From positions 32,001 through 96,000 of IMG/VR virus record IMGVR_UViG_3300046673_000306: 64,000 bases of DNA; one strand, given 5' to 3'. Shown here in pieces: positions 8,752-32,310 of the stretch; position 1 is the stretch's first letter; the number at the start of each line of letters is the position of its first letter. Both the position numbers and the translations under genes were made by a program. The DNA is from a virus. A model generated the notes under the pieces. It was given only the letters and a program-made list of their open reading frames with translations, did not search any database and had not been told where the DNA came from.

Positions 8752-9054
8752 ATGAGCGAGTCCTACGACTGCTTCCGGGACAGGCTCCCGAACGCGGTGT
8801 GCATGGGCGACAAGCACTCGTGCTGCGCGCGCTGCGTCAACAGCAAGAGCGAAGAAGAGAGGAGGGCCCTGATAATGGGCCGGGAGATTCCCGATGGTAA
8901 TTATCCCTTGACAACACTTAAAACAAATAGGACTTTACAACGGAAAATAATATGCTATACTATAAATGCTCCCGGTGGATTTTCTATTTACGGGTCGTCC
9001 GTGCCGACGGGAAACCATCGGGAGCCACGGACGACCCACTTTTATGATTCTTAA
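8752..9054 (+). CDS. Small Cys-rich ORF whose 3' end is replaced by the tnpB element
   Basis: First ~48 codons are phage-like, then the frame reads into the element's left end. Confidence 0.4.
   Translation: MSESYDCFRDRLPNAVCMGDKHSCCARCVNSKSEEERRALIMGREIPDGNYPLTTLKTNRTLQRKIICYTINAPGGFSIYGSSVPTGNHREPRTTHFYDS
8934..8961 (+). promoter_or_regulatory. Probable tnpB promoter (extended -10)
   Basis: TTTACA 8934-8939, 16 bp, TGcTATACT 8953-8961. Confidence 0.5.
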
Positions 9055-10231
9055 AACTTTCCAGCTAAGGCTCTACCCAAATCGTCGGCAGACGCGCTTG
9101 CTATCCAAACATTTCGGCTGTGCCCGCTTCGTCTACAACTGGGGGCTGGCAAAGAAACGGGACGAATATGAGAAAACTGGGAAGTCCTCCACATGGGTCG
9201 CTCTCTGCAAAGAACTAACCATATTGAAGCAGGGCACCTATTGGCTGTGTGAGGTAGCCACTGCTCCATTACAATCTTCTATCCGGCATCTCGACGCGGC
9301 TTACCAGAAGTTTTTCAAGGAGAAGAAAGGATATCCGGCGTTCAAGCGCAAACACGGACGTCAGGCATTTCAGTATCCGGAGAACGTTAAGGTTAACGCC
9401 GAAAAGCGTCAGTTGTATTTCCCATGCATCGGATGGGTACGCTACCTCGATGGGCGCAGTATGGACGGGCAGATTAAAACCGTGACCGTAGTGCGTAGCG
9501 CGACGGGTAAGCACTACGCGCAGGTCCTGGTTTTACTACCTGATAATATCCCTGAGAAGAAGCCTCTCGATAAGTCGCGTGCGGTTGGCATTGATGTCGG
9601 CCTGACGACATTCGCTACATTCTCTGACGGGCGCAAGGTCGCTAACCCGCGTTTCCTAAAATGGAGTCTTAAAAAGCTGGCGACGGCAAACAGGCATCTG
9701 AGTCGGACGCGGAAAGGTTCAGAGAACCGTGGCAAGGCGCGGTTACATTTGGCATTGGCTCACGAGAAGGTCGCTAACCGCAGAAAAGATTTCCTGCATA
9801 AACTGACGACACAGATGGTAAACGAAAACCAAGTTGACACCTGGGTCATCGAGACGTTGAACGTAGCCGGTATGGTCAAACTGCGGAGCCTATCGAGAAG
9901 CATTCATGATGCCAGCTGGTCGGAGTTTGTACGTCAGCTAGTGTATAAATGTGACTGGCGTGGTAAGAACTTGATAAAGATTGGTAGGTTCATGCCGTCG
10001 TCTAAGATGTGCTCTTGCGGTGCAGTAAATGATGACTTGCGTTTGGCTGACCGGACGTGGACGTGCAGGATGTGCGGGGTTACGCATGACAGGGATATCC
10101 TAGCGGCCCAGAACATTCTGAAGTTTTCTAATCTAAATACCGAGGGCAACCCGGGAATTAACGCCTCTGGAGAGGAAGGTCGTAAACTTCCCCGTGGAAA
10201 GAGGAAATCCATACGTGTTCGGAAGGGATAG
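9044..10231 (+). CDS. tnpB: RNA-guided endonuclease TnpB (IS200/IS605 OrfB type)
   Basis: N-terminal RLYP...FGCARFVYN; RuvC-I GIDVG, RuvC-II IETL, zinc finger CSCG/CRMCG, RuvC-III DRDILAAQNI; catalytic D/E/D intact. Confidence 0.95.
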   Translation: MILKTFQLRLYPNRRQTRLLSKHFGCARFVYNWGLAKKRDEYEKTGKSSTWVALCKELTILKQGTYWLCEVATAPLQSSIRHLDAAYQKFFKEKKGYPAFKRKHGRQAFQYPENVKVNAEKRQLYFPCIGWVRYLDGRSMDGQIKTVTVVRSATGKHYAQVLVLLPDNIPEKKPLDKSRAVGIDVGLTTFATFSDGRKVANPRFLKWSLKKLATANRHLSRTRKGSENRGKARLHLALAHEKVANRRKDFLHKLTTQMVNENQVDTWVIETLNVAGMVKLRSLSRSIHDASWSEFVRQLVYKCDWRGKNLIKIGRFMPSSKMCSCGAVNDDLRLADRTWTCRMCGVTHDRDILAAQNILKFSNLNTEGNPGINASGEEGRKLPRGKRKSIRVRKG

Positions 10232-10256
10232 TTGCCTTCCCGATGGACGAGAACAA
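10090..10256 (+). ncRNA. Putative omegaRNA (scaffold overlapping the tnpB 3' end, guide from the right flank); boundaries approximate
   Basis: Expected position by analogy with TnpB systems; GGAATTAACGCC.CTGGAG...AGGAA tail typical of tnpB 3' ends. Confidence 0.45.
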
Positions 10257-31300: not shown

Positions 31301-32310
31301 TCGGTCCAGACCAAGGTGATCTGGGTCCCTCCTCCGATGGTCGCGGAGGTGATGACCGGGGCCGCCATAGTCTGCGGCACGACCACGCTCTGGGCTGCGG
31401 AGAATGGTCCGACGTCGCCCGTGGACGGCGACACCGCCCTGACCCTGTAGGTGTAGGTCCCCGGGACCATGCCCAGGTACCCGAAGGCGTCGTCGTAGGC
31501 CCCGGTTGGGGCTGGCCCAGCGGCCATGGTCATCGAGGACAGGAGCAGGAACGGTCCGGCTCCGACGCTCCTCCAGACTTCGACCTGGTCACCGGCGCCG
31601 TAGGTGTTGGGGTCGGTCCAGGCCAGGGCAATGAGCCCGACCTTGATCGCGGGGATGGCCAGCGGCGGGGAGATCGTGAAGTCCGGGGTGTAGATCGGGA
31701 CCGCCAGGGTCTGCGCCGAGAACGAGGATGGGACGGTGATGGAGGACGGGGCGCTGAGCGTCGTGGTCTGGTACTTGTTCGTGACCTGGACTTCGTAGGA
31801 GTAGGTGTGTCCGGGGGGAGGCGCGGAGGCCGCGATGGTCGCCCCCGGCAGTATGGTCATCCCGGGGGTTCCCGCCGTGACCGTGACGGCCCCGGAATCG
31901 GTGGCCGCCGCCGTATCCAGAGACATGATCACGGGAGTGGGTGAGGCGAGGACCCCGGCGGGGATCACTGCGTCGGAAAATGCGTAGGAGATTCCCGAGA
32001 AAGTGTACCCCTCTTCGGTCCCGGCTCCGGCGGACACGGTGTAGAAGTACTGGGTCAGGGACGACTCCACGGCTCCGGTATCGATCCTGTGACCATCGTT
32101 GCCGTTATCCGGGTTTCCATCCACGTAGTATTTCAGGAAGTAGGAGTACCGAGTCAGGTCCGCCCCGGAATTGGGGTCGCTGAGACCCAGGATCAGGGAC
32201 GTCCCCGAGGCGGAAATCCCGGTGATCGACACCGGTTGGAGGGGGACGAAGGTATCGACCTCGAACAGCTCGAAGAAGTTGCCGCTGCGTACGGGTCTGA
32301 TGACGCTCAT
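28384..32310 (-). CDS. Large virion protein with tandem FN3 domains and a C-terminal beta-propeller-like region
   Basis: Repeated L.WTD...YxYxVxA.N...S motifs. Confidence 0.8.
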   Translation of the reverse strand: MSVIRPVRSGNFFELFEVDTFVPLQPVSITGISASGTSLILGLSDPNSGADLTRYSYFLKYYVDGNPDNGNDGHRIDTGAVESSLTQYFYTVSAGAGTEEGYTFSGISYAFSDAVIPAGVLASPTPVIMSLDTAAATDSGAVTVTAGTPGMTILPGATIAASAPPPGHTYSYEVQVTNKYQTTTLSAPSSITVPSSFSAQTLAVPIYTPDFTISPPLAIPAIKVGLIALAWTDPNTYGAGDQVEVWRSVGAGPFLLLSSMTMAAGPAPTGAYDDAFGYLGMVPGTYTYRVRAVSPSTGDVGPFSAAQSVVVPQTMAAPVITSATIGGGTQITLVWTDPNYPAVSDEKGVRVYLDVGSTTVFDQVAVVAPGTLTYVYSVVIVPGQIYTFKVEAFNQDFAGPTSAAFSVTAPLNAPVLVSVVPAADIGAILTWTDTNLVINEDLETSYSIQRTIMEAPAFLPVIGPLITVPGGTTSFTDVFDYPVGTFVSYRVRADNATAVSPWSNSIQIIIVQELVAPDNVSVAITGAGVINVSWQNISPFVRGTLVYKSMDGAPLTLIASVAASVTEFVDDAPIISGAVYAYSVQNFDNQEQGPASIPIIVTTPFDPPQDLQVVGTPDNMATLTWTTNNLYMDYTAIETAFSNNGTFVEVARVPPGQTTVTVAVNGAPGALVSFRVREIKQAYLILSDVAVPKNLGAYSLTVSTDLALSAPTGVAVTRPLSTQNLVTWSDANTLATGFEVWRQKFVTGSPTSYEAPILVCNDANPALRSYRDTYPMNMGDTVQYWVYAVDADNTSPQSNIAVFTCRMGAPVITTSQTNRTQVTLTITPPAGYAYAAGDQVLISRSVNGSAMSAIATIPASASPMTYVDNALVAPGNIGDVLSYSASMFSAIESGPNSVTVHQTLYDAVFMPLGMVNVVRTFGSRDALTENGNGVFAGCANGIVKVTNNPVGYEPILLASSSDYAGTASIQSGDLTRVVAAGAGDSMYLIDAVTLARVVAPISTLAWSGASNDSGLFDVGIAGQGAGFSGNSQSWGALGLGIYDGWTFATQEGAGVSGIAPWDSAPTEFQNWDRTLAITHPIEPFISLPFLGEVGASAQPLRIEAAGGNGLCMVLQTDSSGSTTSYNTTLFQVQRSTNQAVEIFNIQNYVLDFVSDAVSKVLIVDLAGKIWLVDMSLVPPSASAGYLGYNPLPIGAVVGSIPLPSVYVPPTVTEDPVGHPGDLINLATGSISIELGGGSLVATALYNGTSTTVHVFSIPNPPITLGQTLVLTKTYVVNERVQGLAFDGGVFFYGRSLDTAKLFRFNAGI

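Follow-up and report, generated by a model that had tools for sequence, protein, structure and literature searches.

How does a tnpB gene, coding for an RNA-guided nuclease and accompanied by no transposase gene, come to lie in a phage genome between inverted repeats and an 8-bp direct repeat? We addressed this question for a mobile cassette in IMG/VR virus record IMGVR_UViG_3300046673_000306, a 106.5-kb record of ~64% GC content and a CheckV completeness of 64%. The window that we analysed is a 64,000-nucleotide stretch of this record (positions 32,001 to 96,000; G000:32001-96000), and coordinates are window positions unless a contig is named. The cassette (copy 1; Table 1) has tnpB as its only gene and a GC content of ~50%, against 64% in the surrounding phage. 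Pfam models for Y1 transposases (PF01797), serine recombinases (PF00239) and IS1595 transposases (PF12762) had no match anywhere in the 106.5-kb, 64%-complete record, in agreement with an initial annotation of this DNA that had seen no transposase; the cassette is therefore non-autonomous. We consider it very probable that the interval 8896-10236 is a non-autonomous DDE transposon of the IS1595 family, with tnpB and a tail encoding its guide RNA (omegaRNA) as sole cargo, and that it is moved in trans.

The two ends of the cassette supply the first line of evidence. Positions 8896-8917 match the reverse complement of 10215-10236 at 17/22 nucleotides (19/26 over 26 nt), both arms begin with GG, and the exact octamer TTCCCGAT stands directly outside each end. 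These features and the intact tnpB all lie where the initial annotation had placed them. It had also remarked that the direct repeat can be read as 10 bp; this reading depends on a chance GG after the right copy, which coincides with the first two bases of the element. At a fixed offset, an exact 8-mer match is expected by chance at 4e-5 per position in this genome, and inverted identity of at least 17/22 at no more than 3.5e-5. Because each comes to ~4e-5 per position, we conclude that the combination of inverted repeats and duplication is not due to chance. In the 106.5-kb record TTCCCGAT is found 14 times, counting both strands, as against ~3 expected at equal base use; this excess, probably an effect of codon usage, lifts the chance rate of this particular repeat somewhat. 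The right end forms a weak local hairpin only, in keeping with the reported lack of a long palindrome there, and none was found in the outermost 40 nt on the left.

The second line of evidence comes from elements that share these ends. A scan of IMG/VR with a degenerate form of the cassette end returned 7 loci. L175 (identical to L182) is an autonomous 1420-bp insertion sequence (IS) bounded by the cassette-type repeat, with an exact 8-bp duplication outside it; its transposase-proximal end is the same as window positions 8896-8921 at 26/26 nt. It encodes a 286-aa protein with the domains DDE_Tnp_IS1595 (Pfam E 9.8e-46) and Zn_ribbon_IS1595. With this transposase as query we collected 80 loci. 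Ten more elements with cassette-type ends were found in viral contigs, each with an exact 8-bp duplication, all mutually different. A homologue of the L175 transposase (35-69% identical) is contained in 9/10 of them, all nine from among the 80 loci, and Pfam confirmed two of these nine (L209 and L210), both of which also carry passenger genes. The tenth (L181 8666-9227) is a 562-bp element without a transposase that has cassette-type ends and an 8-bp duplication of its own. The initial annotation had proposed that a TnpB cassette is moved in trans by a DDE transposase, had listed IS1595 among the candidate families, and had suggested looking for transposase-encoding elements with the same ends and for differing 8-bp duplications. 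Both kinds of evidence are now at hand, in L175/L182 with its 26/26 end and in the further elements (nine of them with transposases), and they point to IS1595 as the family.

Several of these elements have features of their own. The cargo of L181 is one 173-aa open reading frame (ORF) with no Pfam family, and the element is inserted precisely in the gap that separates the stop of a phage gene from the start of an acyl-carrier-protein-like gene. Within the ends of two IS1595-family elements in phage contigs lie passengers, an N6/N4 DNA methylase in one (L209 2926-6371) and a DUF6338 protein in the other (L210 2899-5824). Two decayed copies of the L175 lineage (L176 692-2085 and L180 3619-4614) have an intact end repeat and promoter; their transposase match covers the first 136-137 residues only, and the L176 ORF stops after IEADETY in a Gly/Val-rich run.

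To place the cassette ends on one scale, we built a consensus from 22 ends of IS1595-type elements and scored each end out of 26 positions. Copy 1 scored 24/26 at its left end and 19/26 at its right. A second copy of the cassette scored 20/26 on the left, and its right end, like that of a third family member (L013), scored 21/26. The IS1595-type ends themselves span 11-24 of 26, and all four scores lie within this span, while the right ends of the nearest Y1-associated TnpB relatives reach 8-11 of 26. Mobilisation in trans by an IS1595 transposase is thus indicated by the conjunction of IS1595-type ends and an 8-bp footprint with a cargo that consists of tnpB alone.

The family members differ in where they are inserted. 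Copy 2 is a paralogue in the same record, with 71% DNA and 69% protein identity to copy 1 and the same layout; its ends are intact and its inverted repeat is better (20/24, read by eye). The arms of each copy have changed together: the dinucleotide that follows the TATCCC core is TT on either side in copy 1 and AT on either side in copy 2. L013, with 73% protein identity, comes from a related phage, where it has the opposite orientation relative to a helicase gene; its contig includes the right end only. Copy 1, copy 2 and L013 thus occupy three different contexts, and copy 1 recurs in identical flanks in 2 further metagenome contigs (L011 and L012) from 2 samples. Only copy 1 offers both flanks together with a duplication. 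No 4-5 nt motif is common to the left flanks of the two copies (n = 2). According to the initial annotation, copies that lacked duplications and lay next to such a fixed motif with Y1 partners would speak against DDE transposition; copy 2, which has no duplication, adjoins no fixed motif and has no Y1 partner. On the right, the flank of each of the three members begins with TTY (window 10237-10239, L002 2464-2466 and L013 1092-1094; n = 3), and the 8-mers adjoining copy 1 and copy 2 match at 6/8 positions. The shared TTY may be a target preference or the trace of a TnpB requirement, a weak indication given three sites and an AT-preferring transposase. In copy 2, a 36-nt AT-rich stretch separates the left end from a terminator-like hairpin. 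Close TnpB homologues (P0001-P0004) are 99-71% identical. A right-end pattern search for closer family members gave 0 matches, blastn and tblastn against isolated phages and plasmids gave no member above 60% identity, and a scan of viral sequences with the family alignment gave no further member above 49% identity.

The flanks of copy 1 allow the site before insertion to be reconstructed in part. With one TTCCCGAT deleted, GGGAG lies 7 nt ahead of the ATG at 10243 (as read from the sequence), and the nearest homologue of the gene that begins there, 74% identical, has the same start codon. From this spacing and this shared start, we conclude that the cassette inserted between a ribosome-binding site and its start codon; the homologue's start also fits an empty site with a single TTCCCGAT. 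The ORF to the left of the cassette has no Pfam family and no counterpart in the related phage L091, and may not be a genuine gene.

The cargo gene is intact and under constraint. TnpB matches the Pfam domains HTH_OrfB_IS605, OrfB_IS605 and Cas12f1-like TNB (E 1e-18 to 2e-27), and D184, E270 and D351 together with four cysteines are invariant among 10 TnpB relatives. We take the three acidic residues to be catalytic, by established TnpB motifs. Against copy 2 and L013 the dN/dS of TnpB is 0.06-0.10, a ratio which indicates that the protein is under strong purifying selection. Only 12 nt separate the left repeat from a predicted promoter, the copy 2 equivalent of which reads TTGACA, 17 nt, TATACT. 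Between this promoter and tnpB lies a structured leader, one helix of which differs between the two copies by 6 double-sided changes and stays paired through them; a second, crossing helix was found by eye. An ORF from 8966 is in frame with tnpB, the main ATG has no Shine-Dalgarno sequence, and the tnpB mRNA may be leaderless, as an AUG lies 4 nt after the -10 box. The copy 2 counterpart of the leader is at L002 1180-1269. A similar promoter and leader precede a third phage gene, HNH-like by eye, at G000:C1 ~9085-9198 (minus strand, outside the window).

At its other end, tnpB runs into the predicted omegaRNA and stops 5 nt from the end of the element. The omegaRNA region has conserved stem-loops in which 4 pairs are retained through double-sided changes, and it matched no Rfam family. 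In copy 2 and L013 the 51-nt non-coding tail with its end repeat agrees at 51/51 positions, as compared with 68% identity at third codon positions, a contrast that points to strong constraint on the tail. The equivalent of the GAATCC motif lies 26 nt from the element end (27-29 nt in canonical relatives), and in this cassette sub-lineage the stretch from motif to end is the IS1595 repeat, which in L013 and copy 2 still folds into a small hairpin (weak, 8 bp with a bulge) and in copy 1 into a weaker one. On sequence grounds, then, a single 26-nt stretch apparently serves as both transposase binding site and guide-RNA tail. The tnpB frame of copy 1 outruns those of copy 2 and L013 by 17 codons, and that of P0002 (87% identical) is likewise extended relative to copy 2; the extended frame of copy 1 traverses the guide-RNA tail into the end repeat and stops 11 nt before the ATG at 10243, so translation of tnpB and of the downstream phage gene may be coupled there.

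Table 1. Coordinates of the copy 1 cassette, its component features, its neighbours and its paralogue
Feature	Position	Strand	Remarks
Mobile cassette (copy 1)	8896-10236		1341 bp; tnpB is the only gene
Left target-site duplication TTCCCGAT	8888..8895	.	Identical to 10237-10244
Left inverted repeat, IS1595 type	8896..8921	+	Includes a TTGACA -35-like hexamer
Predicted sigma-70-type promoter for tnpB	8934..8961	+	TTTACA, 16 nt, TATACT, TG extension; 10/12 consensus matches
Structured leader	8966..9043	+	Two crossing helices, U-run, in-frame AUG 4 nt past the -10 box
tnpB	9044..10231	+	395 aa, intact; upstream in-frame ATG at 8966
Predicted omegaRNA scaffold	10090..10236	+	Overlaps the tnpB 3' end and extends through the right inverted repeat
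Right inverted repeat, IS1595 type	10211..10236	-	19/26 against the left end; 19/26 against the IS1595 consensus
Right target-site duplication TTCCCGAT	10237..10244	.	Would also be the first bases of the presumed guide template
Small Cys-rich ORF	8752..8895, enters the element, stops at 9054	+	From the ORF list and translation
Downstream phage gene	10243..11184	+	313 aa, no Pfam family; start codon within the right duplication
Copy 2, tnpB cassette paralogue	G000:C1:24597-25941 (L002 1119-2463)		Outside the window, 16 kb upstream of copy 1

Where did this tnpB come from? We gathered TnpB relatives outside the sub-lineage from viral, metagenome and genome collections (251 loci, at most 50% identity). 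A Y1 TnpA gene directly adjoins tnpB in ~18/251 of these loci, and the IS1595 end pair was found in 0/251. The right ends of the relatives follow a common plan, in which a GAATCC-like motif is followed by a hairpin and then a ~9-nt tail, so that the end falls 27-29 nt past the motif. The terminal 12 nt of these canonical right ends match the IS1595 consensus at 6-8/12 positions, and this pre-existing likeness may have eased the capture. The comparison suggests that a tnpB of IS605 lineage, with its guide-RNA tail, was rebuilt inside IS1595 ends.

Several observations weigh against an IS1595 transposon moved in trans. Y1 transposases accompany the nearest relatives of this TnpB, and the right end, which matches the left at only 19/26, retains the canonical small hairpin followed by a tail. 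Copy 2 has no duplication (left flank TAAAGTCG, right flank TTTCAGAT), and the first base of its end is A rather than G. Among the loci examined, no single element contains both an IS1595 transposase and a cassette-type TnpB; in the only locus where an IS1595 transposase and a tnpB co-occur (L233), the tnpB lies outside the IS ends. The phage record itself, 64% complete, encodes no IS1595 transposase. A search of viral contigs for the site with one or two copies of TTCCCGAT gave 0 matches, and L091 is too divergent to serve as an empty site; because no empty site was found, we infer the single TTCCCGAT before insertion rather than observe it. Finally, a DDE transposase does not link insertion to the target-adjacent motif (TAM) of TnpB and excision may itself leave a break, which makes the benefit of TnpB to such an element unclear (PMC13565253).

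Some of these points suggest instead that the cassette arrived as an IS1595-type element and is now immobile. The phage would then keep TnpB, with a guide fixed by the present flank, for a purpose of its own, such as regulation or action against competing phages. Three independent contigs from two samples contain the same insertion, with no empty allele found, TnpB is under purifying selection in a record with no transposase, and in copy 2 the first end base is mutated and the duplication missing, all of which would be expected of such a relic. Yet the family occupies three different sites in related phages, its ends are conserved and co-varying, and the composition of the cassette is still foreign; the record, moreover, is only 64% complete. 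We therefore regard a fixed relic as unlikely.

The canonical features of the right end could also reflect a nested origin, in which an IS605-type tnpB element lies within a miniature shell derived from IS1595 and keeps its own ends and its TnpA-dependent mobility. Transposase-less shells with these ends exist, as the 562-bp L181 with its 8-bp duplication attests, and the right end does retain a small hairpin and a GATAGTT-type tail. The layout, however, leaves no room for separate IS605 ends: there are just those 12 nt between left repeat and promoter, and on the right the canonical motif-to-end distance (26 versus 27-29 nt) is met exactly at the outer end of the inverted repeat. This fused layout is common to copy 1, copy 2 and L013, and the record has no Y1 gene, which together make a nested origin quite improbable.

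Least of all do we favour an ordinary tnpB-only element of the IS200/IS605 type (IS1341 group), moved by a Y1 TnpA, in which the repeats arose by coincidence or from a likeness of the target to the right end. Relatives of this TnpB at 42-47% identity do have a Y1 TnpA directly upstream, copy 2 lacks a duplication and the three right flanks start with TTY. Such an element would nevertheless have to match an IS1595 element at 26/26 positions of its left end, with eleven elements of this end type carrying 8-bp duplications, and would have to acquire repeats and duplication at a chance of ~4e-5 for each; it also shows no 4-5 nt motif common to the two left flanks and no hairpin in the 40 nt at its left end. 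This makes it highly improbable.

Three further candidates were rejected. A group I intron or IStron came into question in that excising 1341 nt, a multiple of 3, would fuse the ORF at 8752 in frame to the ORF at 10243; there is no Rfam intron, the homologue of the 10243 gene has the same start codon, and the N-terminal resemblance to L091 is of low complexity. An IS607 element with a GG crossover was set aside in view of the lack of a serine recombinase in the record, the IS1595-type ends, and the presence of both a duplication and inverted repeats. Pairing of the two ends as long-range RNA structure (19/22 on the + strand with G-U allowed, versus 17 on the - strand) is too weak to be told apart from a protein-binding repeat.

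For the favoured explanation, a transposon mobilised by an IS1595 transposase in trans, we propose the following course of events. The tnpB lineage would descend from IS200/IS605 elements mobilised by Y1 TnpA. Its ancestral left end would have been swapped for a promoter-carrying IS1595 end, and the last ~26 nt of the omegaRNA gene would have come to double as the other. An IS1595-type transposase supplied by the host, another phage or another IS would bind both ~26-bp inverted repeats, and staggered cuts at insertion, once filled in, would give the 8-bp duplication. Once in place, tnpB would be driven from the predicted sigma-70 promoter at 8934-8961 through the structured leader. The omegaRNA would end at 10236, its guide being read from 10237 onwards and hence comprising the duplication and the flank, and TnpB would cut the element-free allele if a suitable TAM adjoins it. 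The usefulness of this guide is not guaranteed, because a TAM is needed 5' of the duplication in the uninterrupted allele and DDE transposases, unlike TnpA, do not tie the insertion site to a TAM. More tentatively, each transposition would write a new guide, with which TnpB could cut the uninterrupted allele in co-infecting phages so that repair copies the element in. We see this as a possibility, and a rather doubtful one; if true, it would make the cassette a DDE transposon with a homing drive and the shared TTY a trace of the nuclease's target need.

How does this arrangement compare with known systems? The initial annotation overstated its novelty, as DDE-associated TnpBs with inverted repeats, and solo TnpBs, were published in 2023. 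Altae-Tran et al. (2023, PNAS) distinguished six TnpB branches associated with DDE transposases (DDE-1 to DDE-6), which have inverted terminal repeats, and also reported solo TnpBs with ends matching transposase-bearing elements (PMC10691335). The cassette resembles the branches in being an inverted-repeat transposon with the tnpB 3' end within 250 bp of its end (here 5 nt), and it resembles the solo TnpBs in that its ends match transposase-encoding elements, which implies movement in trans (PMC10691335). The DDE families named as TnpB partners in the parts of these sources that we could consult are IS630 (PMC10691335) and, in a review, ISL2, IS630 and IS1031 (PMC13565253). In contrast to the DDE-TnpB branches as described there, the partner indicated here is IS1595, which is not among the named families, the element has no transposase gene of its own, and it resides in a bacterial phage. 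A full-text literature search for IS1595 together with TnpB gave no paper on this pairing, as judged by title or abstract. The arrangement has therefore been known in outline since 2023, and IS1595 as the partner family was not named in the literature searched, to the extent that titles, abstracts and the available text reveal it.

The cassette fits the IS1595 family in its GG-starting inverted repeats and 8-bp direct repeats, which IS1595 members make (PMC12561309), and derivatives that carry cargo or lack a transposase exist in that family as well. IS1595 forms with passenger genes, ISApl4 among them, go back to Siguier et al. 2009, as cited in PMC12561309. Unlike an autonomous IS1595 element, the cassette has no transposase gene, and its cargo is an RNA-guided nuclease whose guide-RNA gene overlaps one inverted repeat. 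In its cargo it is close to the IS1341 group of IS200/IS605 and to the TnpB-omegaRNA system of ISDra2, with the same TnpB domain set, acidic triad and zinc-finger cysteines, and with an omegaRNA-like tail that shares sequence with the 3' end of tnpB and extends as far as the element boundary. IS200/IS605 elements have no inverted repeats or duplications and insert 3' of a fixed 4-5 nt motif that equals the TAM (PMC13565253), whereas the cassette has inverted repeats, an 8-bp duplication, no shared left-flank motif and no Y1 partner in the record. A eukaryotic counterpart is Fanzor in transposons with terminal inverted repeats, where a nuclease is likewise the cargo of a duplication-making DDE transposon and the guide RNA exits via the transposon end (PMC13565253). 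In Fanzors, according to this 2026 review, the 5' copy of the duplication is read into the TAM and the 3' copy into the scaffold; with a DDE transposase, the review also notes, a TAM beside the insertion is not assured (PMC13565253). The cassette differs in that its TnpB is of the canonical prokaryotic type and its insertion duplicates a variable 8 bp instead of a fixed TA or TTAA usable as a TAM.

These comparisons bear on how such elements are read. Elements of this sort are routinely labelled IS200/IS605 in annotation, and the matching autonomous partner found here shows that a solo tnpB of a phage is not necessarily a leftover of IS605. In the cassette, a nuclease and its guide-RNA gene appear to have been fitted anew between the ends of a DDE transposon family to which they are unrelated, and the cassette would offer a compact bacterial system for a question of the Fanzor type, namely how a useful guide and TAM are obtained when the transposase duplicates a variable target.

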